A stretch of DNA of 43,606 bases from an uncultured Pirellulales bacterium (GCA_964434165.1 CAYSUS010000060.1:1-43606), one strand, 5' to 3'. Shown: positions 9,017 to 29,064, numbered from the stretch's first letter. Made by a program: numbers and translations. The notes: generated by a model from the letters alone, not told the origin.

Positions 9017-9146
9017 AGGAGAGCCGAGGCGGACCTGGAAGCGTGACCCTCCACGCCGTGGACCTCTCTTCCCGGAAGCGCGCAAGGCGGTTCTGGGCGA
9101 GGGGGACCGGGCGGTGCGAGATGCCGAGCACGCGCTGAGCACCCTC

Positions 9147-15032: not shown

Positions 15033-15152
15033 ACGTTGAGCGGAGTAAGCGAGGTGACCGCGGCCGCGGGGCCGGCGCGCAAGCGGCGCCAACCCCCGGC
15101 GGTCCCGGGACCGCGCGAGTTGCTCCAAGCGCTTCAAGGAGACACCTGTCGG

Positions 15153-17462
15153 ATGCGCCGAGTCGGGCCCATGCTGAGCGGCACGCTTGGGATCGCCGTG
15201 ATCCTTGCGGCGGCAGTCTCGCTGGCCGAACAGACCCCCGCGTCTCCTCCGTCGCGCATCCCCACGCTGCCCGAGCTTCCCCCCGGCGTCGGTGCGAAGG
15301 GACCTCGGATCGCGACCGTGGCGCTCAACCGGCGCCCGGGCTACTGCTCGACCATCGCGCTCGGCTCGCCTGCCGTTCCGCCCGACGGATTCGCCTACAT
15401 GAACCTCCAGGGCGTGGTGCTGGGCGTGGTCGTCAGCAACCCCTCGGACCAGCCCGCCCACGGCCGTCTCGCCGTCAAGATGATCGATCCGGGCGGTGGT
15501 CAGCCGTTCCACGAGTCGCGTTCCGTGGCGCTGAAGGCGAAGGAATCGACGACGCAGTTCTTCTCGGTGGCGACCGGGCCCCGCCTGCCGCTGGTCTCCG
15601 CGCCGGTGCGGACCGGGGCGTGGAAGGGGACCGTGACGCTGGACAACGCGCTTGCGCCGCGCGAGCCTCCCGAGGTCCGCGCCTTCGAGCTCTTCGTGGA
15701 GGATCCCTCGCGGCCTTCGGCGGGAACGCGGGAGCCCGCGGCGCTGGGGCGCGTGCGCAAGTGGGATCCTCCCGATCTGGGTCGGCGGTTTCCCGACCTG
15801 GCGCGGTACGAACGGGCCATGCGCGTTCTCGACGGGATCATGCTTCTCCTGGCCGCGCGGGCCGGGAGCCGTGCGGGCCTGCCCAAGGACGCCGACGCGC
15901 CGCTGTGGGAGACGGCGACCGACGACTTCCTGGGCACGGCCGACGCGGCCAACCGCGCGGCGATGACCTCGGCCACGATCCGCATCGAGCCCGGGGCGGC
16001 GGTCGAGGGCCGTCGCAAGGTGGCCCTCCGCTGGAAGAACGAAGAGCGGGGCGTGCTTGCCAAGGACGGTCCCCTGCGCGTGCGCAACTGCTTCGACCGG
16101 GCGGTGCTGACCCTGTCCGTTCCGTCAGGCATCGAGCTCATCGACCAGCCTTCAGGGCTCGCCGAGACCGCCGACGATTCCGGGACGGGGCGTCGGGTCC
16201 TGGCGATCGTGGAGAGCTTCGTCGATAAGCGGCTGGTGCCCGACGAGGAGCACCTCACGACCTTGACGCTCGACGAGTCCGAGTTCGAGTCGGACGACGG
16301 CTACACGCTGATGGCCCAGGTGCAGTTGCAGTTCGGACCGTTCGGTCGGCCGCTGGGCGAGAAGCCTCTCGCCGAGCGGCCGGCGCCGCTGGAGGTCCCC
16401 GGCATGGCCGTCTATGACTACCGCCGCTGGCTCGACCGGCCGGACGACGTTTACTGGTACGTCGTGTCGGCCGCCTCGGCCGAGGCCGCGGTCGAGGCGG
16501 CCGACCCCGCCGGCGCCGAGATCGTGGTCAACCCGGGGAGGCTGCCCGAGCTGTCGGTGCCCGACGACGAGGCGTCCGGCGCGGAAGGGATGCTCGACAT
16601 CGTCTTCTGCATCGACACGACCGGCTCGATGGCCGACGACATCCAGGCCGTGCAACAGGCCTCGCAACAGATCCTCGACCGCTTCGAGGATTTCTCGGCC
16701 AGGGCCGGGATCAGTTTCCAGGTGGGCCTGGTCACGTACCAGGACCACACCGACGCGGAGACGTTCAAGGGCCAGCCCGAGGAGGCGTGGCTCCAGGCCT
16801 GGCCCCTTTCGGCCGACTCGCGCACGGTCCGCGACAACATCCTCGCGATCCGCATCAACCGCAAGGCCGTGGGCGGGGACATCCCCGAAGACCTGTTCGC
16901 CGCCCTGATGTGCGCCATGGATGCGCGTCCCGACTGGGAGGGCAAGCCCGTGCGCATGGGCTGGCGCGACGGCGCGGCCAAGATCGCCCTGGTCATGTGC
17001 GACGCGCCGCCGCACGACCCGGACTTCGAGGGCCGCACGCTGGCCGACGTGGCCCGACGGGCAGAGGAGCTCGACCCGGTTCACGTGTATCCGCTGATCC
17101 TGCCCGGCTCGGGCCCGGCCCTGCTCGATCCGACCGTGGCGGCCATGAAGCGGCTGGCCGAGGCCACGAAAGGCGAGACGACGAGCGTGTCGGGGGCCAG
17201 CGAGCTGCCCGAGGCCATTGTGCTCACGGTCCAGCGCGCGGTGGAAACCCACAGGCTCGAGGTCTGGCGGCGGGAGAACCCGCCGTATGCGCTCTTCTGC
17301 GCGGTCGGCGCGATCAGCGCCCTGGCGATCCTGGCACTGGCCGGGGCCACGTACGCGCAGCTCCGCCAGCGCCGCCGGCAGGCCGAGCCGTCCGCGGCCC
17401 GGGCGGACGACCGCGAGCTGACCGGCCAGTCCATGCGCCTCCCGCCCGAGCGCCCCGCCTGA
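15153..17462 (+). CDS. von Willebrand factor A (vWA) domain protein with N-terminal signal peptide and C-terminal TM anchor. Start uncertain: TTG 15036, ATG 15153 or ATG 15171.
   Basis: vWA/MIDAS-like block DIVFCIDTTGSMADDIQAVQQASQQIL...GLVTYQDH... Signal-like MLSGTLGIAVILAAAVSLA. C-terminal hydrophobic YALFCAVGAISALAILALAGATY followed by RQRRRQ. The TTG at 15036 lies 4 nt after the SPFH stop. Confidence 0.7.
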   Translation: MRRVGPMLSGTLGIAVILAAAVSLAEQTPASPPSRIPTLPELPPGVGAKGPRIATVALNRRPGYCSTIALGSPAVPPDGFAYMNLQGVVLGVVVSNPSDQPAHGRLAVKMIDPGGGQPFHESRSVALKAKESTTQFFSVATGPRLPLVSAPVRTGAWKGTVTLDNALAPREPPEVRAFELFVEDPSRPSAGTREPAALGRVRKWDPPDLGRRFPDLARYERAMRVLDGIMLLLAARAGSRAGLPKDADAPLWETATDDFLGTADAANRAAMTSATIRIEPGAAVEGRRKVALRWKNEERGVLAKDGPLRVRNCFDRAVLTLSVPSGIELIDQPSGLAETADDSGTGRRVLAIVESFVDKRLVPDEEHLTTLTLDESEFESDDGYTLMAQVQLQFGPFGRPLGEKPLAERPAPLEVPGMAVYDYRRWLDRPDDVYWYVVSAASAEAAVEAADPAGAEIVVNPGRLPELSVPDDEASGAEGMLDIVFCIDTTGSMADDIQAVQQASQQILDRFEDFSARAGISFQVGLVTYQDHTDAETFKGQPEEAWLQAWPLSADSRTVRDNILAIRINRKAVGGDIPEDLFAALMCAMDARPDWEGKPVRMGWRDGAAKIALVMCDAPPHDPDFEGRTLADVARRAEELDPVHVYPLILPGSGPALLDPTVAAMKRLAEATKGETTSVSGASELPEAIVLTVQRAVETHRLEVWRRENPPYALFCAVGAISALAILALAGATYAQLRQRRRQAEPSAARADDRELTGQSMRLPPERPA

Positions 17463-17609
17463 AAAAAACACCACGAGAAGGACAAGACCTGTCGGCGCTT
17501 TCGCCCACCGCGATCCGCGGCCTTCGTTTCGCGGCGAGCGAGCCGCCCGTCGGGAGGAGAGACGGACTGACCCGCGTGATGCATCCTTGGACCCCGGGAG
17601 GTGATGCCC

Positions 17610-18134
17610 ATGATCCGCGTCGTATGCCCCAATTGCTCTTCGCAGTTCGACACCCAGGACATGTATGCCGGGCGGACGGCGAACTGCCCCCAGTGCGGGA
17701 CGCAGCTCACGATCCCGCAGGCCCCGACGGCGTCGTCGGGTTTCTCGCCGGGCGGCGGCCCGCCGCCCATGCCCGGCTACGCCCCGCAGACGCCGTCGTC
17801 GGCCGGGGCCACGTACTACCCCCCGAACAAGCAGCCGGGCGTGGCCCTGGCCGGCATGATCTGCGGGATCGTGGGATTCGTGCTCTCATTGATCTCCGCG
17901 ATTCCGTGCATTGGCTGTTTCACGCTATTGCTTGCCGGCCCGACGGCCCTGGCCGGCGTGATTTGCAGCGTCATCGGCCTGATCCTCTCCAAGAAGCGGG
18001 GCCAGAAGATGACGTATTCGATCGTCGGGCTGTCGCTCTCGATCCTGGCGATCATCTGGGCTCCGATCGTCTACTTCCTGATCCTCGGCGCGCTGGGCGC
18101 GGGCGGAGCCTTCATGGATCCGAGCATGTTCTGA
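17610..18134 (+). CDS. Zn-ribbon + DUF4190 membrane protein. Alternative GTG/ATG start at 17601.
   Basis: MIRVVCPNCSSQFDTQDMYAGRTANCPQCGTQLTIP (CPxC...CPxC ribbon). Pro-rich linker. C-terminal double hydrophobic hairpin GVALAGMICGIVGFVLSLISAIPCIG...LAGVICSVIGLILSKKRGQK...IVGLSLSILAIIWAPIV typical of DUF4190 (PF13828). GGGAGG RBS 9 nt upstream of ATG 17610. Confidence 0.7.
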   Translation: MIRVVCPNCSSQFDTQDMYAGRTANCPQCGTQLTIPQAPTASSGFSPGGGPPPMPGYAPQTPSSAGATYYPPNKQPGVALAGMICGIVGFVLSLISAIPCIGCFTLLLAGPTALAGVICSVIGLILSKKRGQKMTYSIVGLSLSILAIIWAPIVYFLILGALGAGGAFMDPSMF

Positions 18135-18207
18135 TCGCCCCCAACACGGAACGCCGCGCGGCGACGGTCGTCGCGCCGGCGCGATCCCCCGACGACAAGG
18201 TGGAATC

Positions 18208-19737
18208 ATGATTCAGGTAGCGTGCCCCAGTTGCGGGGCCCAGTTCCAGACCCAGGAGATGTACGGCGGGCAGATGACCCTCTGTCCTGCCTGCCGCCGC
18301 CCTTTGACCATTCCGAGCGTCGCCCAGGGCCCGCCCGCCGCGGCCCCCGCCTCGGACCCGGCGCCGGCCTGCGTCTCGGCCCCCGGCTCGCAGGGCCACG
18401 GCGGGGCGGCCATCGCGGCCTTCGTGTGCGGCCTGCTGGCGTTGATCTTCTCCTTTGTCGCCCTGGTTCCATGCGTGGGACTGCTGGTGATCCCCTTCGG
18501 CCTCCCCTTGGTGCTGGCCGCCGTGATCTGCGGGATCATCGGCCTGGCGACCGCCAAGAGCCAGAATCGCAAGAGGTCGCTCGCCGCCACGGGGCTGGTC
18601 CTGGGCGTGGTGGCTCTCCTGTGGGCGCCGATCCTGCTGGTGTTGATCATGGGCGGCCTGTTGGGCCTCAGCTCGGCGACGACGGCGTCGCTGCCTGGGG
18701 CCGACGCGCCGCGATCCCGAACCGCGACGGCGCGTGCGAGCGAAGCGCCCAGGCCCGGTTCGGACCGCAAGCGGCCCGAACCCACGCCCCGCACCGACTT
18801 CCCCAAGCCCGGCAGCGAAGCCCCGCGGCCCGCCACCGGCACGAAGCCTCCGACCTCCAAGGGGCCGGGCAGCGCCGAAACGTCCGACGGGAGCCCGATG
18901 GCCCGCGCGCTGGGCACGGCGCCTTCGCGATCCACGGCGCCCCGCACCTCATCCCGAGAGTATGACCGGGACGCGAGGATCGCGGACCTTTTGAAGCGCG
19001 AGCCGCCAAAGAAGCCCGAACCCGAACCGGAGCCCAAGCCCGAGCCCGTCGAGCGGCCCACGGTGGTGCGCACCGAGGCCGATCTGGACCGCGCCCTGGC
19101 CGCCCTGGAGAGCCAGCGGGTCCTGGACGTCAGGCTCACGAAGCAAGCCGTGGGCGACGACCGGCTTCAGAAGCTCCGCGACTGGGTCGCGCAGGGAGGA
19201 ATCCTCTGGACCGACACGGACCTGGTACGTACAGACTACGCGAGCCGCGACGATGGCTTCGGTTTCCTGATGATCTCGGCGCCGCGCGACCAGGTCAGCG
19301 GCGAGGTCTTCGTGCGCCGCGGGTCGCCCTCGCACCCGGTCGTTGAGGACCTCGGCGAGACGGTGGGCTACGAGCTCTCCGACTGCGAGCTTCTGATCAC
19401 GGTGCCGATCGATGCGCGGGGGCAGATCCCCGACGACATCGCGCCGCTGCTCGGATGGCCGCCCGAAAGGGGCCGCCGCGCCCTGCGCGTGGTGTCGGCC
19501 CTGCGAAGTTTCGGCCGCGGTCTGGTCGCGTACATGCCGCGACGGATCACCCCGCAGGACGCGGCCGAGACGTTCGCCGAGAATCTGCGCGAGTTCAGTT
19601 TTCGCGCGGCCGCGCGGGGGGAGAGGGGCCCGTCCGGTGTGCTTCAACCATCGCCGGGACGCCGCCGCCCCAACCCCATGGAGAGCGAGCGGCCCACGCG
19701 GTCGCCGCGACGTGCTCCCAGCCGGCGGTCGCGCTGA
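18208..19737 (+). CDS. Zn-ribbon + DUF4190 membrane protein (paralogue of 17610..18134) with a 330-aa cytoplasmic C-terminal extension of unknown function.
   Basis: MIQVACPSCGAQFQTQEMYGGQMTLCPACRRPLTIP, then a DUF4190-like TM hairpin (AIAAFVCGLLALIFSFVALVPCVG...). Followed by a low-complexity Pro/Ala/Ser/Arg segment, a (PE)n/KPEP linker (19021-19050) and a 200-aa globular-looking tail (WVAQGGILWTDTDL...). AAGGTGGA RBS. Confidence 0.7.
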   Translation: MIQVACPSCGAQFQTQEMYGGQMTLCPACRRPLTIPSVAQGPPAAAPASDPAPACVSAPGSQGHGGAAIAAFVCGLLALIFSFVALVPCVGLLVIPFGLPLVLAAVICGIIGLATAKSQNRKRSLAATGLVLGVVALLWAPILLVLIMGGLLGLSSATTASLPGADAPRSRTATARASEAPRPGSDRKRPEPTPRTDFPKPGSEAPRPATGTKPPTSKGPGSAETSDGSPMARALGTAPSRSTAPRTSSREYDRDARIADLLKREPPKKPEPEPEPKPEPVERPTVVRTEADLDRALAALESQRVLDVRLTKQAVGDDRLQKLRDWVAQGGILWTDTDLVRTDYASRDDGFGFLMISAPRDQVSGEVFVRRGSPSHPVVEDLGETVGYELSDCELLITVPIDARGQIPDDIAPLLGWPPERGRRALRVVSALRSFGRGLVAYMPRRITPQDAAETFAENLREFSFRAAARGERGPSGVLQPSPGRRRPNPMESERPTRSPRRAPSRRSR

Positions 19738-19743
19738 GAGCCG

Positions 19744-20244
19744 ATGCGGCGATTGCTCCCAGGAGACACCCCAAGGATTCCGCCTGCCAGTACGATGGAG
19801 CCCAGCCGCCCGGAACCCGTCCTTACGCCCGTCGCGTCTCTCGGCGCGACGACGGATCGCTGGTACGCCCTGACCAACCTGGCGATCGCGGTCTTCCTGG
19901 TTGTCCTGCTGGCCCTGGCGGCGATCGCGCGGATCGAGGGCGATGGGCTGGTGCTGTTCGGCCGCACGATGCCTGAAACGTGCTTCTGGCGGCTGGTGTT
20001 CCACCGGCCTTGCGCGGGCTGCGGCACCACGCGGAGCGTGGTGCTCGCTCTGCATGGCCGCTGGGGCGAGGCGCGGGCCATGCACCCGGCGGGGGTCTGG
20101 GTGCTCGGGTATCTCGTGTTTCAGTTGGCCGCCCGCCTGACGCTGTTGGCAGTGCGGCCCCGCGGGCCGACGGTTGCCGGGGTCGATCTCGCGCTCTCCG
20201 TGGGGCTTCTTCTTGGGGCGTGCTACATCCCGCTCTTCCTGTGA
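19744..20244 (+). CDS. DUF2752-family membrane protein. Possible alternative start at ATG 19795.
   Basis: TM helix (LTNLAIAVFLVVLLALAAIA) followed by CFWRLVFHRPCAGCGTTRS, the C..C-G-T-R signature of DUF2752 (PF10825). Two further TM helices. ATG 19744 is 7 nt after the stop of the preceding gene. Confidence 0.65.
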   Translation: MRRLLPGDTPRIPPASTMEPSRPEPVLTPVASLGATTDRWYALTNLAIAVFLVVLLALAAIARIEGDGLVLFGRTMPETCFWRLVFHRPCAGCGTTRSVVLALHGRWGEARAMHPAGVWVLGYLVFQLAARLTLLAVRPRGPTVAGVDLALSVGLLLGACYIPLFL

Positions 20245-20355
20245 CGGGGTCGAGAGCGTCCCGATTGGCGCCCGGGGCCTGGAGGACTAGGATGGCCTGT
20301 AGGTTGGGGCGGAGCGTGGGAACACCCTTCACCGGCTTCTCCGGAAACCGCGGCG

Positions 20356-20919
20356 ATGGAGACGACGCGCGCGAGCCTGCTGCTGCGTATCCGCGACTTG
20401 CAGGACAAGGCAAGCTGGGAGGAGTTCGTCGGCATCTACGGTCCGTTTCTCCTCCGCGTGCTGCGGCGTCATTCCGTTCCGGCCGACGACTCCATGGACA
20501 TGGTCCAGGAGACGTTCCAGGCCGTGGCCGCCAACATCGGCGAGTTCCAGTACGACGCGGGGCGTTCGTTCCGGAAGTACCTGGCCACGATTGCGCTGCG
20601 CAAGGCGTGGAACCTCCTGCGCGCGAAGCAGTGCCGGCCGGCGGCCCTGGGCGGGAGCGACCAGTACCAGGCCATCCAGCAGCTCCGCGGCGAGGTCGTG
20701 GACGAGGAATGGTACCGGCGGCGCCTGGAGATGGCCATCGAGCGTGCCCGCGCGCGGTTCGGCGAGCTCGAAGGGCAGGTCTTCGAGATGGCCGATCTGG
20801 AAGGGGTGCCCGACCGCCAGATCGCCGAGCGGCTCGGAATCGACGTCGGCTACGTCTATGTCTGCAAGTCGCGGGCACGCAAGAAGGTCCGCGTGGCGCT
20901 GGAGGAGGGCGATGAGTAG
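20356..20919 (+). CDS. ECF-type RNA polymerase sigma-70 family factor.
   Basis: 187 aa. Region-2-like (FVGIYGPFLLRVLRRH...DMVQETFQAV) and region-4 HTH (LEGVPDRQIAERLGIDVGYVYVCKSRARKKVR). Typical ECF size. Confidence 0.85.
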   Translation: METTRASLLLRIRDLQDKASWEEFVGIYGPFLLRVLRRHSVPADDSMDMVQETFQAVAANIGEFQYDAGRSFRKYLATIALRKAWNLLRAKQCRPAALGGSDQYQAIQQLRGEVVDEEWYRRRLEMAIERARARFGELEGQVFEMADLEGVPDRQIAERLGIDVGYVYVCKSRARKKVRVALEEGDE

Positions 20920-23509
20920 CGAGCCGCTCGGGGCCGCGGGCTGTCCCGCCACCGACACGCTGCGCCGCGTGGCGGCGGCCGAGGCCCCGCCCGGCGAGGA
21001 GTCGCAGGTCCGAGACCACCTGAACGGCTGCGCCGCGTGCCGGGAACGTTTCGAGAGGGCGCTGGGCACAACCGCCGAGTACTTCGCCCTGCCGGACGAG
21101 AACGTCGAGCTGACGGCCGAGGAGCTTCGCGAGCTCAGCTCGCGATGTCTGCCTTTAGGGGTGAACGCCCTGCAGCGGGAAGACGGTGTCGAGCTTGCCG
21201 ACGGCCTGGGTCTGCCGCCCCCGCGAGGGCGGCCCTTCCTGGCTCGGCTCGGGCCGTACGACGTGGTTTCCGTGCGGGGCAAGGGCGGGATGGGCCTAGT
21301 GCTTAAAGGTTACGACTCGGCTCTACAGCGTTACGTGGCCTTGAAGGTGATGCTTCCGTCCCTGGCCAGGGACGAGGCGGCGCGGTGCCGATTCCTTCGC
21401 GAAGCACGGACCGCGGCCGGCCTCCGCCACGCGAACGTGGTGGCCGTGCATGCGGTCCATCACGACGCCGACCCGCCGTATCTGGTGATGGAGTACGTGG
21501 CCGGGCGCTCGCTGGCCTCGTTGCTGGCGGCCGAGCCCCTGCCGACCCCGCAGCAGGCCGCGGAAGCGGTCCGCCAGGTGCTGCTTGCGCTGGAGCACGC
21601 GCACCAGCAGGGGGTGATCCATCGCGACGTCAAGCCGGCCAACGTGCTGGTGGAGGAAGGGAGCGGGGCCGTCAAGCTGGTGGATTTCGGGCTCGCCCGG
21701 GCCGTGGCCGAGGCCGCGCGCCTCACCGCCGAAGGCATGGCGATGGGCACCCCCTGGTACATGGCCCCGGAGCAGGCCCGGGGCAGCGAGCACCCCGACG
21801 GGCGCAGCGACCTGTTCTCGGTGGGCGTGCTGCTCTTTGAGATGCTCTCCGGGACCGTCCCCTTTCCCGGACGCGACCCCCACGAGGTGATGTTCCGCCT
21901 CGCGACGGAGGACGCCCCGGACGTGCGCGCGCGAAGCCCCGAGGTGCCCGAGGCGATGGCCGCGATCGTGCGCCGCGCCCTCCGGCGGGATCCGGCGGCG
22001 CGGTACGCATCGGCGTCGGCGTTTCTCGAGGCGTTGGACGCGTTCCTCGCCGCGCCGAACCGGCCGCAGGGCGCGGCCGTGGACGGGCCTCCGGCCGCGC
22101 CCGTCGCGGGGCCGCCCCCGGCGACGTCCTGCATGCGCGTGATCCTGGAAGTCGCGAAAGGGCCGCTTGCGGGGCGCTGTTTCGAGTTCGATCGTCACGA
22201 CACCCTCGTGGTCGGCCGTTCGAAACGGGCCCAGCTTCGGATCGCCGCCGACCCCTACTTCTCGCGGCACCACTTCATGATCGAGGTCAATCCGCCCCGC
22301 TGCTTCCTTCGCGATCTGGGGAGCACGAACGGCACCTTCGTCAACGGCCAGAAGCTCGGCCAGGCCCACCTCGGCGATGGCGACGTGGTTCACGGGGGGC
22401 GGACCGAGATCCGCGTGCGCGTCGCCGGCGCGACTCCGATCGGTCTCGCCGAGGGGCTGCGGTCTGCGCCCCCCACGGCCGGCCGCGTGCGCGCCGACAT
22501 GGACGCGGTGCCGTTGGGCACCTTCGCGCCCCGGCCCGACCCGACATTGCGCTGCCGGCAATGCGGCGCCCCCGCGCGGGAAGCCGCCGTCGCCGGGCTC
22601 GCGCAGACGGGCCTGGTCGCTTACGCGTGCCGCCGGTGCCACGAGAAACACTGCGACGCCGGTCATCCGGTGGTGGATTACGAGGTCGCGCGCGTGGCGG
22701 GACACGGCCCCCTCGGGCCGATCTGCGAGGCGCGGCGCGTCTCGACGGGCACCGCCGCGACCCTCCGCGTACTGCCGCCGCACATGACGTCCAGTCCCCA
22801 GGCGGTTGACATGTTCCTTCGGCAGATGCGCCTGGGGGCCCAGTTGCGCCACCCGAACATCGTCCCCGTTTTGGAAATGGGGCAGTCGGGCGATACGTTC
22901 TGGATCGCCACGGAGCACGTCGCCGGGATCGACGCCGGGCAGTTGGCCGGGCAGCCCGGCGGATCGCTCGCGCCCGGCGACGCCGTGCCGATCGCCATGC
23001 AAGTGCTCGAGGCTCTCGACTACGCGCACGGCCTGGGGCTCGTCCATCGCGACGTCAAGCCAACCAACGTGTTCGTCTCGGGCGGCCCCGGCGCGCGGCT
23101 TGCCCGGCTCGCCGACTTCGCCTTGATGCGGGCGATCGACGACGCCGGCCTGAGCGGGATCACGCGTGAGGGGGAGTGCCGGGGCACGGTCGCCTTCATG
23201 CCGCCGGAACAGGTGCTAAGGAGCCGCCAGGCCACGCCCGCCTGCGACGTGTACGGCGCGGGGGCGACGCTCTACTGGCTCCTCACGGGCCACCCGGCCT
23301 ACGACTTCGAGGCCCGAGACGCCCGTGGCGAGCCCAAAGACCCCTTCCTGGTCATCCTGGAGGACCCCGTCGTCCCGCTGCGCCGGCGCAATCCGGCCGT
23401 ACCGGCGGCCCTGGCCCAGGTCGTGGAGAAGGCCCTCGCGCGCGAGCCCGCCGATCGCTACCGCTCCGCCCGGGCGATGCAGCAGGCCCTGGCGGGGCTG
23501 GGCTATTGA
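20912..23509 (+). CDS. Multidomain signalling protein: ZAS-type anti-sigma N-terminus, active Hanks Ser/Thr kinase, FHA domain, Cys4 Zn-ribbon, and a second degenerate kinase-like domain (likely pseudokinase).
   Basis: ATG 20912 overlaps the sigma stop by 8 nt (GATGAGTAG). N-terminus carries H-x3-C-x2-C (DHLNGCAAC), the ZAS anti-sigma zinc motif. Kinase 1 is intact: GKGGMG, VALKVM, HRDVKPAN, DFGLAR, APE. FHA block VVGRS...HHFMIE...LRDLGSTNGTFVNGQKL. CRQCG...CRRCHEKHC ribbon. Kinase 2 keeps GHGPLG and HRDVKPTN but has ATLRVL (Arg in place of beta3 Lys) and DFA in place of DFG. Confidence 0.85.
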   Translation: MSSEPLGAAGCPATDTLRRVAAAEAPPGEESQVRDHLNGCAACRERFERALGTTAEYFALPDENVELTAEELRELSSRCLPLGVNALQREDGVELADGLGLPPPRGRPFLARLGPYDVVSVRGKGGMGLVLKGYDSALQRYVALKVMLPSLARDEAARCRFLREARTAAGLRHANVVAVHAVHHDADPPYLVMEYVAGRSLASLLAAEPLPTPQQAAEAVRQVLLALEHAHQQGVIHRDVKPANVLVEEGSGAVKLVDFGLARAVAEAARLTAEGMAMGTPWYMAPEQARGSEHPDGRSDLFSVGVLLFEMLSGTVPFPGRDPHEVMFRLATEDAPDVRARSPEVPEAMAAIVRRALRRDPAARYASASAFLEALDAFLAAPNRPQGAAVDGPPAAPVAGPPPATSCMRVILEVAKGPLAGRCFEFDRHDTLVVGRSKRAQLRIAADPYFSRHHFMIEVNPPRCFLRDLGSTNGTFVNGQKLGQAHLGDGDVVHGGRTEIRVRVAGATPIGLAEGLRSAPPTAGRVRADMDAVPLGTFAPRPDPTLRCRQCGAPAREAAVAGLAQTGLVAYACRRCHEKHCDAGHPVVDYEVARVAGHGPLGPICEARRVSTGTAATLRVLPPHMTSSPQAVDMFLRQMRLGAQLRHPNIVPVLEMGQSGDTFWIATEHVAGIDAGQLAGQPGGSLAPGDAVPIAMQVLEALDYAHGLGLVHRDVKPTNVFVSGGPGARLARLADFALMRAIDDAGLSGITREGECRGTVAFMPPEQVLRSRQATPACDVYGAGATLYWLLTGHPAYDFEARDARGEPKDPFLVILEDPVVPLRRRNPAVPAALAQVVEKALAREPADRYRSARAMQQALAGLGY

Positions 23510-23558
23510 CCCTCAGCACGCCCATGCGTTCAGGGCGTCCAGCGCGAGCCCGGCTTCC

Positions 23559-23578
23559 CGCGGCGAACCGTCGCCGCG
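23559..23578. terminator. Perfect 8-bp GC-rich hairpin (cgcggcga-accg-tcgccgcg) between convergent genes; candidate bidirectional intrinsic terminator.
   Basis: Read directly. Lies in the 125-nt gap between the stops of 20912..23509 (+) and 23635..25344 (-). No U-tract, which is common in high-GC genomes. Confidence 0.4.
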
Positions 23579-23634
23579 AGATGGCACGGTCCGTTCGACC
23601 GTCGACGAAGCCGGTCGTCGTGGAGGCCGGCCGA

Positions 23635-25344
23635 TCAGTCGGCCGCGCGCTCACGGTACACGATCTCGCCCGAGGTGTTGATGTACCTGGGCGACGCGGT
23701 CATGTTGCGCTGGTCCACGAGCGTCACGCGAGCAAGCCCCCGATGGAAGTCCTCGACCTCGACGAACTGAGGTTCGATGACCAGCTTCCCCTTGTTGTCG
23801 ATGTAGCCCCAGAGCTCTCCCCACCTGCGGGAGTCCTTCACGGCCACGGCCGCCCGGCCGTCGGAGAACCGGCGGGACTTGACGAACTCGACGGGAAGGA
23901 CGAGCTTGCCTTGAGGGTCGATATAGCCGGCGAACGGCTTCCCTTCACGACTGCCTCGAACGGCGGCCAGACCGCCGGAGAACTCCGAGGCCGAGTCGAA
24001 CTGGGCGGCGATCTTCAGTTGGCCCGACTTGTCCACGTACCCCCATTTCCGACTCCAGCCGCCTTCCTTGATCTCCACGGGGGCCAGCCCGTCGCCGAAG
24101 CGCCCCGCCGCGTTGAACTTCGGCTCGGTGATCTGCCGGCCCGACCGGTCCACGAACGTCCACAGCCCGTTGCCGTCCTGCGGCTGCACGGGCGCGAGCC
24201 CCTCGGAGAACTCCAGCGCCGCGCGATAGCGCGGGCCGAGCACGACCTTGCCGGAGGTGTTGATGTAGCCCCAGCCTCGCTTCGTTTCGGTGGCCAGATG
24301 GACCGCGGCCAGCCCTTCGGAGAATTGCCGGGCTCCTTCGAACTGCGGTGCGATCGCCGGGACGCCCGTCGCGTCGATGTAGCCCCACAGGTTGCGCGAC
24401 GAGCGGCCGCCGGGCGTCTTGTCCTCGACCTTCATGCGCACGGCGGCGAGCCCGTCGCAGAAGGGCCCCGCCTCGAGGAACGTCGGGGAGATGACCATCC
24501 GGCCGCTGCGATTGATGTATCCGTACTTGCCGCCGGAGAGTCTCGGCTTGCGATCGTGGACCTGGACCGGATAGTAGTCGCCGCCGCCGAACATCGCGGC
24601 AGGGTTGCGCACGTAGCCCCGCACCCTCGGCGAAAGCAGATACGCCGCCACGCAGATCAACAGCACCAGCAGCACCGCGCCCGCCCCACTCGTGGCGATG
24701 ACGATCTTGCGTTTCGTCTCCGGCGACATCGGGGGCCGCGAGGAGACGGGCTGGAGAATCGAAGGATCGAGCACCGCCGTCGTGGTGTCGGACGCCGGGC
24801 CCGGCGAGCCGGAAGGTGCCGGATTCAGCTTGACCGGGATCAGCACCACCGGACTCTCGTCCGACGACCCCTGCCACGTGGCGTCGCCGCCGAGCCGCGC
24901 CGTCTGGTCGGGCGGAGGACCGGAGCCGGGCGCTACGGGAATCAGCGGGACCGGATCATCGGCCTCGGGCGCGAGCTGCGGGCCGGGTGGCGACGCCGCC
25001 GCGCGGACCGATGGAGGCTCGGGCGACGAAGATGCGCCGGTCGCCTGGGGTTCGTGCCCCTGTCCCACCTGTTCCAGGCCCCACGGCTCGGCGCAGACCT
25101 TCAGCACGGCCTGGCACCCGTTGCAGCGGACACGCTTGCCGTGAAGCTGGCGGGTCAACCGCAGCCTCTTGCCGCACTCGGGGCACGGCAGGGTGACCGG
25201 TTTGCTGGGCTGCGCGTTCTGGGCGGCGGCTTTGGGCACCTCGATGCTCTCACCGCACTCGGGGCACCGCGCGGTCTTGCCCGCCATCTCCGCCGCAACG
25301 TGGATAACCTTTCCACACTTGGAGCAGGCCAAGCTGATTGTCAT
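23635..25344 (-). CDS. Membrane protein with two N-terminal Zn-ribbons, one TM helix and a C-terminal array of WG-containing repeats (KWGYID-type).
   Basis: Start at the internal ATG (cat 25342-25344) with GGAGG RBS. Two CxxC...CPxC ribbons (CSKCGK...CPECGE and CPECGK...CNGCQ). TM segment IVIATSGAGAVLLVLLICVAAYLL. At least 8 repeats of the form [KR]WGYI[DN].[ST]G..VI.P.F..A..FS[EDG]GLA.V. Confidence 0.7.
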   Translation of the reverse strand: MTISLACSKCGKVIHVAAEMAGKTARCPECGESIEVPKAAAQNAQPSKPVTLPCPECGKRLRLTRQLHGKRVRCNGCQAVLKVCAEPWGLEQVGQGHEPQATGASSSPEPPSVRAAASPPGPQLAPEADDPVPLIPVAPGSGPPPDQTARLGGDATWQGSSDESPVVLIPVKLNPAPSGSPGPASDTTTAVLDPSILQPVSSRPPMSPETKRKIVIATSGAGAVLLVLLICVAAYLLSPRVRGYVRNPAAMFGGGDYYPVQVHDRKPRLSGGKYGYINRSGRMVISPTFLEAGPFCDGLAAVRMKVEDKTPGGRSSRNLWGYIDATGVPAIAPQFEGARQFSEGLAAVHLATETKRGWGYINTSGKVVLGPRYRAALEFSEGLAPVQPQDGNGLWTFVDRSGRQITEPKFNAAGRFGDGLAPVEIKEGGWSRKWGYVDKSGQLKIAAQFDSASEFSGGLAAVRGSREGKPFAGYIDPQGKLVLPVEFVKSRRFSDGRAAVAVKDSRRWGELWGYIDNKGKLVIEPQFVEVEDFHRGLARVTLVDQRNMTASPRYINTSGEIVYRERAAD

Positions 25345-25423
25345 CGGATTCCTCCCCGTCGTCCCGGTCGCCGAGCCCCAACTCAGACCCACATAGGTCC
25401 TACCCCCGAACGGCAGCGACCTT

Positions 25424-25473
25424 ACATACCTGTCTCGGCGCGTTCCTCACATACCTGTCTCGGCGCGTTCCTC
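25424..25473. repeat. Perfect tandem duplication, 2 x 25 bp (acatacctgtctcggcgcgttcctc), in the 5' region of the WG-repeat gene. Followed by a 2 x 9 bp tandem (ctccgcccg, 25481-25498).
   Basis: Read directly from the sequence. Each unit contains GGAAC on the strand of the downstream (minus-strand) gene. Confidence 0.7.
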
Positions 25474-25797
25474 GACGCCGCTCCGCCCGCTCCGCCCGCG
25501 GGCGAGACGCGAAGGCGACTCTCCCGTTTCCACCCGGTTGTGGATCGCGTCGCTAGCCATCGTGACTACTCGACGCCCTGAAGTCAAGCGAACGCGTGAC
25601 CTTTCCGCGCAAGCCTGGGCTGATGGCGCTGGCGGGCCTGGTCGAAGCCGGCCTGGTCGCCCGCTGACCGGCGCTGGAGAGCTGAAGCCTTTGGGCGGCC
25701 CGTCAGGAATAGACGAACCGGCCTCCGACCACTCCGGTCGATTCCGAGCCGGGCTGAGCGGCCCGGCTCGAGGCCTCCTTCGGCGGAAGCCGGCACA

Positions 25798-28700
25798 TCA
25801 CTTCTCGGCCGTCCCCGACGCGACCGACTTCCCGCCGTCCGTTCTCGCCCCGAACTTCTGCACCTTTCCGTCGCGGAGCGCAACGAACACGCCGCCCTCG
25901 GTCACCGCGATGCCGTCCCAGACGGGCCGAGCGGGCAGGCGGCAGACTTCGGCCGCGGCGCCGTTTTCGAGATCCAACCGCATGAGCACGCCGCCTTCTT
26001 CTCCGCGGATCGATCGGGCGACGAAGTCAGGCGTCGAGCCGCCGTTCAGGCTCATCGGCGGTCCGGCGACCAGCACGGCGTCGCCCGCGAGGGTCATCGC
26101 CTCGACGCGGACGGGAACTCGGGTCGCCCAGATCTCTCCGGTAGCCTCCTGTGCGCGCTTGCCGAGAGGCTTCGGCTTGGCGCTGCGGTCATTGGCGAAC
26201 ACCGTGTAATGGTTGCGGCCGAGCTCGAAGAAGCCCTCGTGGTAGAGCAGCCGGCCCGGCACCATGTTGTCGGCGGCCCAACGGACGCCGACGAACACCT
26301 TCTCGTTGAACGCGAGCAGGCGCGCGGAATTCGTCTGGTCCAGCACGTAGCTCGACCGGTCGTAAAGGCTGTCGTCGAGGAAACCCGTGATGCTCACCAG
26401 GGGGCTCTCTTTGAAGTCCTTCTGCCACAACTGCGGGGTCCAGGGCGTGTAGGGCCACGTGGCGGGTTCGAAGCGAAACGTCTTGGGGTCGAGCTTGAGG
26501 TTCTTCATGAACAGGCTCGTGCCGTCGTATACGAACAGGTCGTTGAGCGTGCCCCGCACTTCGGCGCCGGCCTGGTCGGACCCTTCGCCGGCGGTGCAGC
26601 GACGCTCCGCGTGGCGGACCCTTCCCGTCTCGGCGTCGAGCGCGTAGAAACGCAATCCGCCGTCGAGGTAGGTTGTGCGTCCCGCGGCGACATATACGGC
26701 GCCGTCGGCGACCATCACGCTGCCGTGCACGGGCCACGCCGATTCGATGTTGCCGAACGACACGATCGACCGGTGCGCGGGGTTCGCGTTGAAGCGCCAC
26801 ACGAGCTCGCCGTCATCGGCACGCAGGCAGTAAACGAAGCCGCCGGCCGTGCCGAAATAGACCTTTCCCTGCCACAGCGTGGGCGGCGTATCGACGAGGT
26901 TATCGACGTTGACGGACCAGACGGTTTCCCCGCTTCGGCAGTCGAGCGCCATCACGCGATGGTGGCGCAGCCCCGCCAGGAAGACCTTGCCCCAACCGAC
27001 GGTCGTCGCGGTGATCGGTTCTTCAAGATCAGCAACCCAGTCTTGGGCAAGCGCGGCGGCGGGTTTCACGTCGGTCGCCGCGCTGCGCAACGCGTCGTGG
27101 CGGTACGCGGGCCAGGATGGGGATCGGCCATCGGGGGACGCGGCCTGCGATCCTGCCCCGGATCCCCGCTCCAGCCGCTCATCATCCGAGACCGGCCGCG
27201 CCGCGCCCGTCGCGCGCGCGCCGTACGCCACGAATCCCGGCATGCGCGTATTGGCGAAGCAGATGCACTGCTGCGGCGGCGTGTAGAGCAGGCCGTTGGC
27301 GGGCATCACGCCGTACGAGCAAATGCCGCGCACCCACCGGTTGATGTCGATCTTGCCCGACCGCAGGTCGGTGAACTCCAGCCCGTTGCGCGAGAAGATG
27401 ATGAAGTTCTCCGTCGCCTTGTTGCGATAGCACCGGTGATGATGAAGACTGGTCATCACGGGCGTGATGTCGTAGGTCTTCTCGACTTCCCCGGACCGCG
27501 GGTCCAGTCCCCACAACGGATAGGACCGCGGAGTCCGAGCCCCTTGCTGGGGCGGCGCCAGAACCCACAGCAGGCCGCGTGCTTTGTAGATGCTGACCAT
27601 CGTGCGGAAGCCGGCCGCGCCGCACTTCTTCTGCCACAACGTCGATCCGTCTTCGCAGGAGAGGGCCTGCAAGTCGATGGCGTAAGGCAGGCCGCGATTG
27701 GTCCGTTGCCGGTAGCTGTAAAGCACGCCGTCGCTGACCAGAAGATCGCTGACCAGATCCGTGGCCCCGAACGGCCGAGCCGCCGGAGGTGCGGCCCTCT
27801 CCACCGCGACCCGCCAGCTCTCCGCGCCGTCTTCGGCGCCCAGCGCGACGATTGCGTCCTGGTCGTGCACGAACACCTTCCCGTCGCCGACCGTGAGACT
27901 CAGCCGCGTGAGCATGGCGTCCTTGGCGCGGAACTTGCCGTCAACGATTCCGTGGAATCCCTTCCGCTCCCACCGCGTGCGACCCGAATCCGGGTCGATG
28001 GCGACCACGCTCTTCGCCGGTCGCTGACCGTAGTCGCCCGCGCGCTGGGCCGCGCGATCGACCGTCGCGAACAGCACGCCGTCCTCCACGGCGATCTCGC
28101 TGGTAAACGCGGTGCCCTCATACGTGCGGAGCACCTCGCCGGTCGCCCCGTCGAGCCGGCACACGGGGGCGCGGAAGCCAAGCGTGGCGTAAACGTCGTT
28201 GCCGTCGGCCACCAGTCGTTTGTGGATCACCCTCGGGTTGCTGATCCACGGACCGTGGCCGGCGTGCGATGAGCCGTCGCGGGCCCACCCTTCGCCCATC
28301 CACGCGCGGTTCCCCCAGTCCCGCACGGGGCGCGTCCACAGGATCACGCCGTTGAAGGCGTCCCGCGCGCACAGGTGCCATTGCTCCAGATCATAGCTGC
28401 GGGTGCCGATCGCGCTGGGGCCGGTGTCGGCGATGTAGTACAGCCGCCCCTGCGCCGTGACGAGGCCGGTCAGCGTGGGGCTGACGTCGTGCGATTTCGG
28501 CCACCGCGGCGGGCCGATCCACTGCAACGACCGCGGAGGACCCACGAGCTGGTCCCGCCCCACCGGGTTTCCGTCGGCCGCGTGGAGCCAGTGCGTCCAC
28601 TGGTCCATCCCCTTGGGCCACGGCTTCACTTGGCGCTCCCAGGCTCCATCGCGATTCCTGATGCAAGCAACCCCCCGCGGCGCGAGGACGCGCTGCACCT

Positions 28701-29064
28701 CCGTCATGGGCGGTGCGTCGGGACGTTCGGCGACGAACAGGTTCACCGTGTTATCGCCGTAGGGCAGGTACGCCTCTCGCCAATGCCGGACCGTCACGGA
28801 GCCGGGAAGATCGCGCGAGCGCAGGCGAGTGCGGATCTCGGCGACCTGGCCGGCGTCGGGCGAAAGGCCCTGCACGACGCACGACTCGCCTCGGCATAGT
28901 GCCTCGGTAAGCCGACCGTCGCCGCAGCCGAAATGGACGATCACGCCGCCCGGCGTCTTGGACAGCTCGAAGATCTCCCGGGCCGCCTGCCGCGCCGATT
29001 CATCCTCGCCGAAAGCCAGTGCCCCGCCGAACGCCATCCAGGCGCAGGCGGCCAGCGACGCCAT
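25798..29064 (-). CDS. Secreted protein with PQQ-like beta-propeller repeats (BamB-family-like) and an N-terminal class-I SAM-methyltransferase-like domain.
   Basis: Start at the internal ATG (cat 29062-29064) giving signal peptide MASLAACAWMAFGGALAFG. VIVHFGCGDGRLTEAL...VVQGLSPD resembles MTase motif I. The remaining about 850 aa carry repeated ...DG.L[YF]..[ST]..G.[LV].A[LI]D..[TS]G...W.. propeller blades. Confidence 0.75.
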   Translation of the reverse strand: MASLAACAWMAFGGALAFGEDESARQAAREIFELSKTPGGVIVHFGCGDGRLTEALCRGESCVVQGLSPDAGQVAEIRTRLRSRDLPGSVTVRHWREAYLPYGDNTVNLFVAERPDAPPMTEVQRVLAPRGVACIRNRDGAWERQVKPWPKGMDQWTHWLHAADGNPVGRDQLVGPPRSLQWIGPPRWPKSHDVSPTLTGLVTAQGRLYYIADTGPSAIGTRSYDLEQWHLCARDAFNGVILWTRPVRDWGNRAWMGEGWARDGSSHAGHGPWISNPRVIHKRLVADGNDVYATLGFRAPVCRLDGATGEVLRTYEGTAFTSEIAVEDGVLFATVDRAAQRAGDYGQRPAKSVVAIDPDSGRTRWERKGFHGIVDGKFRAKDAMLTRLSLTVGDGKVFVHDQDAIVALGAEDGAESWRVAVERAAPPAARPFGATDLVSDLLVSDGVLYSYRQRTNRGLPYAIDLQALSCEDGSTLWQKKCGAAGFRTMVSIYKARGLLWVLAPPQQGARTPRSYPLWGLDPRSGEVEKTYDITPVMTSLHHHRCYRNKATENFIIFSRNGLEFTDLRSGKIDINRWVRGICSYGVMPANGLLYTPPQQCICFANTRMPGFVAYGARATGAARPVSDDERLERGSGAGSQAASPDGRSPSWPAYRHDALRSAATDVKPAAALAQDWVADLEEPITATTVGWGKVFLAGLRHHRVMALDCRSGETVWSVNVDNLVDTPPTLWQGKVYFGTAGGFVYCLRADDGELVWRFNANPAHRSIVSFGNIESAWPVHGSVMVADGAVYVAAGRTTYLDGGLRFYALDAETGRVRHAERRCTAGEGSDQAGAEVRGTLNDLFVYDGTSLFMKNLKLDPKTFRFEPATWPYTPWTPQLWQKDFKESPLVSITGFLDDSLYDRSSYVLDQTNSARLLAFNEKVFVGVRWAADNMVPGRLLYHEGFFELGRNHYTVFANDRSAKPKPLGKRAQEATGEIWATRVPVRVEAMTLAGDAVLVAGPPMSLNGGSTPDFVARSIRGEEGGVLMRLDLENGAAAEVCRLPARPVWDGIAVTEGGVFVALRDGKVQKFGARTDGGKSVASGTAEK

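Follow-up and report, generated by a model that had tools for sequence, protein, structure and literature searches.

The window, a 43,606-nucleotide stretch of DNA from an uncultured Pirellulales bacterium, carries two overlapping genes on its plus strand. The first (20356..20919, +), identified by its open reading frame, Pfam and TIGR02937, encodes an ECF (group 4) sigma factor of 187 amino acids, and the second (20912..23509, +), identified by its open reading frame and Pfam, encodes a multidomain partner of 865 amino acids starting MSSEPLG. The sigma stop and the partner start overlap by 8 nt (ATGAGTAG; 20912..20919, +), and a Shine-Dalgarno-like GGAGGA stretch (20898-20903, +) lies within the LEE codons of the sigma gene. 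This overlap suggests coupled translation and matched protein amounts. The same 8-nt overlap was found in L001, L004, L008 and L175, with a 17-nt overlap in L089, and the translational coupling proposed in the initial annotation is supported. A DUF2752 membrane protein (19744..20244, +; Pfam DUF2752, 7e-13) is encoded directly 5' of the sigma gene, and the order DUF2752 - sigma - kinase is common to the window, L001 and L005-L007, which links the three genes by conserved synteny only.

The sigma factor contains Sigma70_r2 (residues 27-92, 7e-11) and Sigma70_r4_2 (residues 139-177, 9e-7) in Pfam and scored 72.6 bits against TIGR02937 (cut-off 42.9). Having only sigma2 and sigma4 domains, with a length inside the range of about 170-200 amino acids that defines the ECF class, it is an ECF sigma factor. 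GGAAC-type promoters had been suggested nearby and found no support: GGAAC-N14-19-CGTC occurred 5 times in the window against 5.5 expected, a chance frequency, and no shared GGAAC-type motif was found upstream of the orthologous sigma genes. Motif searches of the window and of the orthologous upstream regions identified no sigma-dependent promoter or regulon.

The partner consists, in order, of a ZAS-like N-terminus (ZAS, zinc anti-sigma), an intact Hanks kinase (kinase 1), an FHA domain, a Cys4 ribbon and a second kinase domain (kinase 2). These five domains and their order, as first described, are supported: Pfam reported two Pkinase stretches, FHA and a sub-threshold zf-HC2 match, and the Cys4 ribbon was read in the sequence. 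No transmembrane segment was found in the partner (the top Kyte-Doolittle 19-mer, within a kinase helix, scored 1.49) and it is predicted to be a soluble cytoplasmic protein. Only one full-length homologue (P0002/P0278) was identified. It is 56% identical to the partner across 98% of the length, shows the five domains in one unbroken chain and repeats the 8-nt overlap. A search of other genomes placed the five-part fusion in only two protein clusters, in keeping with the rarity that had been claimed for it. This rarity, together with the metagenome-style nature of the contig, would fit an artefact, a frameshift or chimeric assembly near 22.1-22.6 kb that made one gene out of two. However, the homologue is encoded by a continuous 880-aa open reading frame in independent JGI metagenome contigs (L001, L005), its linker regions can be aligned with those of the partner, and GC content is even over the sigma/partner region. 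A mis-assembly of the partner is effectively refuted by the independent contigs carrying the same architecture, and we regard an artefact as extremely improbable.

The predicted anti-sigma domain and the first kinase

A zinc-binding class I anti-sigma domain (residues ~8-58; 20933..21085, +) was predicted from its ligands and from a family profile. The partner N-terminus contains the motif H36-x3-C40-x2-C43 (DHLNGCAAC), preceded by C11 as the upstream fourth Cys/His ligand that, with H-x3-C-x2-C, defines a ZAS domain. These four predicted zinc ligands were invariant in all 27 aligned family N-termini. Matching to zf-HC2 was divided, the partner itself reaching 18-20 bits (18.1 at residues 24-44), below the Pfam cut-off of 22.2, and 24 of the 27 ZAS-kinase family members matching, at best with 7.8e-7. 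When the family profile was searched against the PDB, the top of the list held only ECF anti-sigma factors (DdvA 5e-6, RsiW 2e-4, RslA 5e-4, ChrR 0.015). An AF2 model of the region placed helices at 14-21, 27-37, 41-51, 54-58 and 69-78, with pLDDT > 90 for residues 11-50. The top 16 Foldseek matches of this model were all ECF anti-sigmas (RsiW, DdvA, ChrR, RslA and MucA being the best), but the matches were weak, with E>=0.47 and TM-scores of 0.3-0.6. The identification of the N-terminus as an anti-sigma domain draws support from profile, fold and synteny, and this domain most likely binds the sigma factor and holds it inactive. No conserved candidate for a phospho-acceptor was found in the anti-sigma region across the 27 aligned family N-termini.

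The N-terminal half of the partner groups with the ZAS-kinases, a planctomycetal family that has many members and differing C-termini (WD40, DUF4384, FGE-sulfatase) and that includes membrane-anchored WD40 proteins. An ECF sigma gene lies directly upstream of the ZAS-kinase gene in seven of the seven lineages examined (the window, L001/L005-7, L002-4, L008, L089/L086, L175 and L173), and most of these junctions have the 8-nt overlap. The combination of an anti-sigma domain with an active Hanks kinase is not in itself unusual, being the property of a whole planctomycetal family; what is rare is the five-part fusion. Alignment of the family N-termini also defined a family-specific linker (residues 59-112; 21086..21247, +), ending in a conserved GLxLxxPR...(Y/F)(L/I)A directly before kinase 1. 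The linker was modelled with a short beta hairpin and a pLDDT mostly of ~70-79 that drops to 50 at its final two positions.

The zinc ligands of the redox-responsive anti-sigma RsrA are C11/H37/C41/C44. The spacing of C11/H36/C40/C43 in the partner is almost identical, which would suit an RsrA-type switch, with the zinc site as a sensor of thiol oxidation that frees the sigma factor and the kinases as parallel outputs or unrelated passengers instead of the trigger. The predicted solubility of the partner fits the same reading, as zinc motifs associated with redox sensing are over-represented among soluble class I anti-sigmas (PMC7406223). Against it, such zinc sites are often structural only, as in RsiW (PMC7406223), no thioredoxin or other thiol-stress gene was found among the neighbouring genes scanned, and ZAS and kinase occur joined across a large family, its membrane-anchored members included, an argument for the kinase having an integral part in signalling. 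We consider a redox switch of this kind quite improbable.

Kinase 1 (residues 116-385; 21257..22066, +) is a complete Hanks-type Ser/Thr kinase (Pkinase 2.8e-82) and a PknB-type model matches residues 116-384. The full set of motifs of an active kinase is present: the G-loop GKGGMG (123-128), K145, the alphaC E164, H237-R238-D239, the catalytic N244, D258-F259-G260 and A285-P286-E287, all conserved in the full-length homologue. T272 is the single conserved Thr of the activation loop. By its motifs, kinase 1 is catalytically intact.

Region 2.2 of the sigma factor and direct phosphorylation

An intact kinase encoded beside an ECF sigma gene recalls ECF43, with the pairs EcfP/PknT of Vibrio and EcfK/PknS of Xanthomonas, and the planctomycetal groups ECF59-62 and ECF217, in which a sigma gene also lies beside a Ser/Thr kinase gene. 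A link between sigma factors and kinases in Planctomycetes is already part of ECF classifications (PMC7826278, PMC8999054), and surveys describe kinase-linked ECF groups as typically lacking an anti-sigma and acting by phosphorylation of the sigma factor (PMC7826278). ECF43 sigmas lack the acidic DAED motif of sigma2.2 and need phosphorylation, its place being taken by uncharged residues that include a conserved Ser or Thr as acceptor (e.g. STTA). The sigma factor in the window, in contrast, has D45-S46-M47-D48 and keeps the acidic residues at DAED positions 1 and 4, D45 and D48 being invariant in its seven closest homologues. Position 2, occupied here by S46, is Ala in most relatives, the family equivalent of DAED is D-A-[LM]-D with the third acidic residue lost, and an extra D/E precedes the D45/D48-type acidic pair. 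No conserved Ser/Thr acceptor was found in sigma2.2 among the seven closest homologues. Assignment to the ECF43-type, phosphorylation-activated sigma factors was rejected, since D45/D48 are kept and the DAED equivalent holds no conserved Ser/Thr.

A looser form of the ECF43 model would have the kinase activate the sigma factor by direct phosphorylation, with the ZAS-like domain as a docking site or tether that presents the sigma rather than an inhibitor. The kinase-linked groups ECF43, 59-62, 217 and 283 are thought to use sigma phosphorylation (PMC7826278, PMC8999054), and the loss of the third acidic residue in the family and the Ser at position 2 in this protein would be compatible with it. 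Set against these points are the invariant acidic pair with its additional D/E, the Ala that replaces S46 in most relatives, the full four-ligand ZAS signature, and the fact that the closest solved relatives of this domain are inhibitory anti-sigmas. We judge this model unlikely. ECF43, ECF59-62 and ECF217 are described as lacking an anti-sigma, whereas here the kinase itself carries a ZAS domain.

The FHA domain, the zinc ribbon and the second kinase

The C-terminal half of the partner begins with an FHA phosphothreonine-binding domain (residues 409-505; 22136..22426, +; Pfam FHA 2e-16, covering residues 433-494, with Yop-YscD_cpl also matching at 3e-10). The residues that bind phosphothreonine (G435-R436, S451, H454, N473-G474) are intact, and the motif is conserved across the 128 members of the FHA-Zn-ribbon-kinase family. 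A Cys4 zinc ribbon follows (residues 546-578; 22547..22645, +), formed by C548, C551, C573 and C576. The four Cys were invariant in 21 of 21 close family members, and CxxC...CxxC was present in nearly all of the 128. AF2 modelled the C-terminal half with a pTM of 0.81 and with pLDDT of ~85-93 over the FHA domain and 75-91 over the ribbon.

Kinase 2 (22676..23497, +) has the Hanks fold with several lesions, identified by alignment to PknB of M. tuberculosis and by a family census. R619 (ATLRVL) falls on Lys40 of PknB, the beta3 Lys position, and the DFG motif reads DFA (735-737, A737); both changes, as originally read from the sequence, are borne out, and the alignment adds a third, Q638 at the position of the alphaC Glu. 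Proper alignment thus revealed no intact catalytic Lys. PPE replaces APE, as is the norm in the FHA-Zn-ribbon-kinase family, and HRDVKPTN is intact, with Asp714, N719 and Asp735 kept. The codon of Arg619 is CGC, at least two substitutions from AAR, and is therefore not explained by a single-base sequencing error. A pseudokinase is defined by loss of one or more of the VAIK-Lys, HRD-Asp and DFG-Asp, and kinase 2 has lost the first of these. This state is nevertheless particular to the protein in the window: the full-length homologue has TLKLL and DFG in its kinase 2 and shares only the alphaC Glu to Gln change, and the beta3 Lys is kept by 127 of the 128 family members, with Lys to Arg only here. 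The earlier designation as a probable pseudokinase consequently stands for this protein and fails as a trait of the architecture. Because the homologue keeps Lys and DFG, the pseudokinase state is recent and a non-catalytic kinase 2 is not a general feature of proteins of this type.

Kinase 2 could still be working, Arg619 standing in for the Lys, and the partner would then hold a two-kinase cascade in one chain. Asp714, Asn719 and Asp735 are retained, the nearest homologue has both Lys and DFG at 65% identity between the two domains, Gln at the alphaC position is frequent among family members that look intact, and ATP binding persists in certain kinases without the canonical Lys (preprint 10.1101/2025.01.12.632604). 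The exchange is, however, the only one among 128 members, no Lys occurs anywhere in the N-lobe of kinase 2 that could compensate, and the K to R, E to Q and G to A changes coincide. Lys to Arg at this position is also the standard kinase-dead mutation. A catalytic role of this kind is in our view improbable. FHA (68% identity) and kinase 2 (65%) are the best-conserved domains between the partner and its full-length homologue.

The C-terminal 461 residues were 47-63% identical across 98% of their length to about 45 planctomycetal stand-alone FHA-Zn-ribbon-kinases, which align end to end with this half of the partner (FHA, CxxC...CxxC, PPE, GLSGIT). NCBI records list such proteins as 'FHA domain-containing serine/threonine-protein kinase'; they share the FHA domain, the Cys4 ribbon, PPE and a GLSGITR.GE.RGT activation loop, but are independent proteins of ~430-470 aa with the beta3 Lys intact, whereas in the partner the module follows a ZAS-kinase in the same chain and lacks this Lys. 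In L089/L086 a stand-alone FHA-Zn-ribbon-kinase gene lies immediately upstream of the sigma/ZAS-kinase pair; most others examined (L087, L170-L172) are not adjacent to a sigma gene. The partner joins two gene families that can also be found side by side, and such a fusion is rare; the unusual step is that a ZAS-kinase took up an FHA-Zn-ribbon-kinase module that already existed.

A proposed phospho-switch and comparison with known systems

We interpret the two genes as an ECF module in which the partner is a cytoplasmic kinase-coupled anti-sigma with a proposed phospho-switch, a reading to which we assign a probability of about 0.6. Kinase 1, once activated, would autophosphorylate, most likely on the conserved activation-loop Thr272. 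The FHA domain may then read phosphothreonine on kinase 1 or in the anti-sigma/linker region, in cis or across a dimer. Kinase 2, without beta3 Lys, alphaC Glu and DFG Gly yet strongly conserved, would act above all as a scaffold or allosteric partner of kinase 1, with little or no catalysis of its own. The sigma factor would be freed when phosphorylation, either of the anti-sigma region or of the sigma bound to it, lowers the affinity. The arrangement of the genes, the identity of the domains, the state of the motifs, the family membership and the conserved linkage between sigma and ZAS-kinase are shown by the sequence analysis; we infer sigma binding, the residues phosphorylated, the functions of kinase 2 and the FHA domain, and the signal that is received. 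An intramolecular write/read switch, as suggested in the initial annotation, is plausible, and reading by the FHA domain in trans is equally possible because the same module occurs as a separate gene beside a sigma/ZAS-kinase pair.

The closest working analogy is PknB of M. tuberculosis, a Hanks kinase whose phosphorylation of the ZAS anti-sigmas RshA and RseA sets SigH and SigE free (PMC8999054). In that system the kinase and the anti-sigmas are separate proteins encoded apart, whereas the partner joins them in one polypeptide with an FHA domain and a second kinase-like domain. The partner resembles the ZAS anti-sigmas RsrA/RshA, ChrR, RsiW, RslA and DdvA in its H-x3-C-x2-C motif with an upstream ligand, in its short N-terminal domain, predicted to be helical, and in the position of its gene directly downstream of an ECF sigma gene. 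Some of those anti-sigmas are small, soluble and redox-sensing, others are membrane proteins with domains of sensory or protease type, and none contains a Hanks kinase, while in the partner ZAS forms the ~60 residues at the start of a kinase protein of 865 aa.

The sigma/partner pair points to a little-noticed form of sigma factor control in Planctomycetes. We tentatively suggest, as a reading less likely than not, that the Planctomycetota contain a wide class of ECF regulators, not pointed out until now, that have the anti-sigma domain built covalently into a Hanks kinase, and that this lineage captured a trans-acting FHA-Zn-ribbon-kinase and disabled its Lys, giving a self-contained cytoplasmic writer/reader/scaffold switch that gates sigma release. 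If true, such a class would contradict the literature, in which ECF sigmas linked to kinases are held to lack an anti-sigma and to be activated by direct phosphorylation.

RsbW and SpoIIAB are likewise anti-sigmas that are themselves protein kinases (PMC4598750), but their fold is of the GHKL type, their targets are group 3 sigmas and their substrate in partner switching is an anti-anti-sigma, and no HATPase_c was found in the partner with Pfam or NCBIfam. Bacterial proteins of the kinase-FHA-kinase type (P0217, P0149) also combine one intact and one degenerate kinase with an FHA domain between them; they lack ZAS, and in their degenerate domains HRD and DFG are missing rather than the Lys. 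An analogous tandem of kinase and pseudokinase is found in the JH1/JH2 domains of JAK-type kinases.

The ECF sigma gene and its multidomain partner

The feature described in the initial annotation is real and all of its parts were found within 20356-23509 of the window, which has a GC content of approximately 70%. The ECF sigma gene (20356-20919) codes for 187 aa with Sigma70_r2 and Sigma70_r4_2 domains and passes the ECF superfamily model TIGR02937. Its stop codon and the ATG of the partner gene overlap by 8 nt (20912-20919; ATGAGTAG), and the partner open reading frame, ending at 23509, codes for 865 aa. Pfam and NCBIfam identified two protein-kinase stretches in the partner. Of the two other domains that profile models had been expected to call, FHA was recovered (residues 433-494; E = 2e-16), whereas Pfam zf-HC2 gave only a weak match (residues 24-44; 18 bits, below the 22.2 cut-off). 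The putative zinc ligands C11 and H36-x3-C40-x2-C43 were read from the sequence. Kinase 1 has a complete Hanks motif set (K145, E164, HRD 237-239, N244, DFG 258-260, APE 285-287) and the CxxC...CxxC ribbon is formed by C548/551/573/576. The partner has no transmembrane segment, indicating a cytoplasmic system. The pair is a kinase-associated ECF system, a kind already known, in a new variant. PADLOC returned generic kinase-domain matches only for the partner and none for the sigma factor and five neighbours, leaving a role in anti-phage defence unsupported.

Both ECF sigma factors and Hanks kinases belong to the main bacterial signalling systems, and to our knowledge their connection has been worked out experimentally for ECF43 only, where the kinase phosphorylates the sigma factor directly. 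ECF43 sigma factors have uncharged residues instead of the DAED motif in region 2.2 and depend on phosphorylation of a Thr at that site (PMC8999054). Unlike this arrangement, the window sigma factor carries D45-S46-M47-D48 at the equivalent position, with D45 and D48 invariant among its closest homologues. Position 2 is mostly Ala in these homologues, so the motif holds no conserved phospho-acceptor. Judged by this motif the sigma factor is not ECF43-like, and the acidic residues agree with one that would be able to bind core RNA polymerase and would need sequestration.

The GGAAC-type promoters suggested in the initial annotation did not hold up: GGAAC-N14-19-CGTC occurs in the window at chance frequency only, and no ECF-type motif was common to the upstream regions of five sigma genes. 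A sigma-70 promoter scan of 18000-25700 gave nothing above threshold. One weak sigma-70-like candidate scoring under that threshold (TTGGCG-17-TAGGAT; 20265-20293, + strand) lies 62 nt upstream of the sigma ATG, and a similar TAAGAT element precedes the sigma genes of two other loci (L002 and L008).

The N-terminal domain and its linkage to sigma genes

Among the kinase matches, 34 proteins share an N-terminal Cys, an HxxxCxxC motif approximately 25 residues further on and a kinase starting at about residue 120, with C-termini that differ (WD40 with a transmembrane segment, DUF4384, FGE-sulfatase, or unknown). C11, H36, C40 and C43 were the only invariant residues besides Met1 in an alignment of 27 N-termini of this family (ZAS-kinases), and Pfam zf-HC2 matched 24 of the 27. 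When a profile of these N-termini was compared to all PDB sequences, the six best matches were all ECF anti-sigma factors (DdvA, 5e-6 and 2.7e-5 for two entries; RsiW, 2e-4; RslA, 5e-4; ChrR, ~0.015 for two entries). An AF2 model of partner residues 1-112 was helical with pLDDT >90 over residues 11-50, and the 16 leading Foldseek matches to it in the PDB were again all ECF anti-sigma factors. Their statistics were weak (E ≥ 0.47), which is to be expected of a helical domain of approximately 50 residues. A rival reading, an RsrA-like redox switch, is unlikely.

An ECF sigma gene was found directly upstream of the ZAS-kinase gene in 7/7 lineages with upstream DNA: the window, L001/L005-7, L002-4, L008 (a Ca. 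Anammoximicrobium MAG, Pirellulaceae), L089/L086, L175 and L173 (an Isosphaeraceae MAG). The two genes overlap by 8 nt in five lineages and by 17 nt in L089, and a conserved GGAG lies within the final codons of the sigma gene at Shine-Dalgarno distance. Of the computational evidence, this conserved linkage speaks most strongly for the domain being the cognate anti-sigma factor. A docking domain that presents the sigma factor for direct phosphorylation, the route established for ECF43, is the rival reading; with a sigma motif devoid of a conserved acceptor and a profile led by anti-sigma factors, we consider this unlikely. In a scan of genome contigs with the sigma alignment, the nearest match was in a Ca. 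Anammoximicrobium MAG (44%), and the relatives of the source organism are all Planctomycetota.

Neither sigma factors nor ZAS domains are mentioned in a recent bacterial kinase atlas, and we found no mention of a ZAS domain on sigma-linked kinases in the literature searched, although earlier notice is possible. A family-wide anti-sigma domain on kinases is worth follow-up. If it is a working anti-sigma factor, many planctomycetal sigma/kinase pairs would follow another logic, in which a kinase-coupled anti-sigma sequesters the sigma factor, and the claim that anti-sigma factors are absent from kinase-linked ECF groups would need revision.

In L002/L003 (6001-10102) and L008 (3974-8145), the sigma gene and a ZAS-kinase gene with a DUF4384 C-terminus are followed by a gene for approximately 600 aa, annotated as Peptidase_C14 (caspase-like) in L002/L003; the C-terminal half of its positional equivalent in L008 is hydrophobic.

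A captured C-terminal half and a probably disabled second kinase

Partner residues 405-865 have 47-63% identity over 98% of length to approximately 45 stand-alone planctomycetal proteins of 440-550 aa, and approximately 40% identity to many Acidobacteriota proteins, all in the order FHA, Cys4 ribbon, kinase. On this comparison the C-terminal half was an independent protein that has been captured. The AF2 model of this half reached a pTM of 0.81 with a disordered 35-residue linker between FHA and ribbon, and a fold search with it returned kinase domains only (PknI, PknA, PknB), with no solved FHA-kinase arrangement matched. The matches listed in a metagenome scan for further loci were all ordinary kinases with at most 41% identity.

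A full-protein search of 1.84 billion cluster representatives returned no five-part clusters beyond the partner and P0002, its sole full-length homologue cluster (member P0278; 880 aa, 56% identity over 98% of length), and the architecture that the initial annotation proposed looking for elsewhere thus exists in one further cluster. P0002 and P0278 derive from separate JGI metagenome contigs. P0002 has the same domain order, follows the corresponding sigma gene with an 8-nt overlap and also has a DUF2752 gene upstream; the recurrence of this arrangement, with an uninterrupted protein, on independent contigs effectively rules out a mis-assembly in which a sequencing error had fused two genes.

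Alignment of kinase 2 to PknB structures with HMMER (E~1e-31) bore out the proposed replacement of the beta3 Lys by Arg (R619; ATLRVL on VAVKVL) and of DFG by DFA, and revealed a previously missed alphaC Glu to Gln change (Q638; FLRQMR on FRREAQ), while HRDVKPTN is unbroken. The R619 codon, CGC, is at least two changes from every Lys codon and so is not a single-base error. In WNK kinases another Lys substitutes for the beta3 Lys; the kinase 2 N-lobe has no Lys at all, hence no possible substitute. A kinase 2 that is still active, for which the intact HRDVKPTN might speak, is improbable beside these replacements.

Kinases 1 and 2 are only 36% identical, which argues against a recent duplication. 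Kinase 2 of P0002 retains the Lys and DFG and shares the alphaC Gln. Between the two full-length proteins, FHA (68% identity) and kinase 2 (65%) are better conserved than kinase 1 (58%) and the anti-sigma domain (41%), which, with the Lys absent only from the partner, suggests that kinase 2 is under selection and has recently lost its catalytic Lys. A census of 128 FHA-Zn-ribbon-kinases agrees: all members but the window protein keep the beta3 Lys, and DFG is altered in three only (DFA in the partner and P0285, DFV in P0139). The FHA phosphothreonine-binding residues and ribbon cysteines are conserved, the family normally has PPE where other kinases have APE, and the alphaC Gln is common in the planctomycetal branch (at least 20 members). 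As far as these alignments tell, the loss of the catalytic Lys is recent and confined to the window protein. The five-part fusion, whose second kinase has probably been disabled only lately, is rare and worth follow-up.

In approximately half of the planctomycetal FHA-Zn-ribbon-kinases the alphaC Gln occurs together with degeneration of the glycine loop (QRGELG, HRGELG, ERGELG), while Lys, HRD and DFG are kept (P0137, P0311, P0313, P0314, P0316-P0318, P0320 and others), a hint that this branch may handle nucleotides in an atypical way. Two kinase-FHA-kinase proteins without a ZAS domain were also seen: P0217 (813 aa) has an intact first and a degenerate second kinase (HQL for HRD, DLV for DFG), and in P0149 (745 aa) the order is reversed, the degenerate kinase coming first (HEC, DAG).

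Proposed mechanism and gene neighbourhoods

In the mechanism we infer, the zinc-bound N-terminal domain would sequester the sigma factor, kinase 1 would act as writer, and FHA would read a phosphothreonine, the obvious candidate being T272, the sole conserved activation-loop Thr of kinase 1. Kinase 2 would serve mainly as a scaffold or allosteric partner, and the sigma factor would be freed once the anti-sigma region or the bound sigma factor is phosphorylated. In M. tuberculosis, PknB acting on RshA and RseA provides a parallel for such a release (PMC8999054). As a test case the window protein is handy, holding writer, reader and a probable, naturally kinase-dead partner within one soluble polypeptide, and its close homologue with the Lys would offer a natural active/inactive comparison.

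A split version was found in L089 and the partial contig L086, where a 469-aa FHA-ribbon-kinase gene is followed after approximately 25 nt by an ECF sigma gene, which itself overlaps a ZAS-kinase gene (frameshifted in the L089 assembly). All three components that the window joins by fusion or coupling are neighbours there, which argues for a functional link. Proximity to a sigma gene is not universal: the stand-alone gene in L087/88 adjoins a different Zn-ribbon kinase, and those in L170 (2676-8404), L171 (1138-8380) and L172 (3086-8371) form a conserved operon with DZR-Band_7, Zn-ribbon-FGE-sulfatase and Zn-ribbon-Peptidase_U49 genes, with further kinases opposite. From their sequence contexts, the common theme of the stand-alone proteins is that other Ser/Thr kinases lie close by.

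In L089 (6081-6833, 10052-12300) the ZAS-kinase frameshift falls after the catalytic loop and the frame is regained at 10884. Approximately 1.2 kb upstream of the FHA-kinase there is also a Y1 transposase gene. The gene order in L170-172 is double-Zn-ribbon/Band_7, (DUF4384), Zn-ribbon-FGE-sulfatase, Zn-ribbon-Peptidase_U49 (not in L172) and FHA-kinase last, and one to three further Ser/Thr kinase genes are convergent with the operons of L170 and L171. Its DUF4384 and FGE-sulfatase also occur as C-termini of some ZAS-kinases (P0003, P0011, P0029).

Tightly spaced co-directional genes (14064-20244, +) precede the sigma gene in the window, coding for a Band_7/SPFH-SHOCT protein (14064-15032), an 808-aa VWA protein (15036-17462), an unknown ORF, a Zn-ribbon/DUF4190 membrane protein (18208-19737) and DUF2752 (19744-20244). 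L001/L005 show the series VWA_4, 167-aa protein, DUF2752, sigma, kinase again, and Band_7 and Zn-ribbon genes recur close to related kinases (L170-172, L175). A second large Ser/Thr kinase gene (8925-12329, +; 1134 aa as listed, with the real start probably near M75) codes for an N-terminal CPDC...CPHC zinc ribbon, a kinase, a probable transmembrane stretch and approximately 12 WD40 repeats, with no ZAS motif; the Zn-ribbon kinase of L087/L088 resembles it at its start. Convergent to the partner gene is a gene (23635-25392, -) for a 585-aa protein with seven WG beta-repeats (Pfam WG_beta_rep, 7e-72), three N-terminal zinc-ribbon motifs and a hydrophobic segment, and 25798-29304 (-) codes for 1168 aa with a methyltransferase domain and PQQ/BamB-like beta-propeller repeats.
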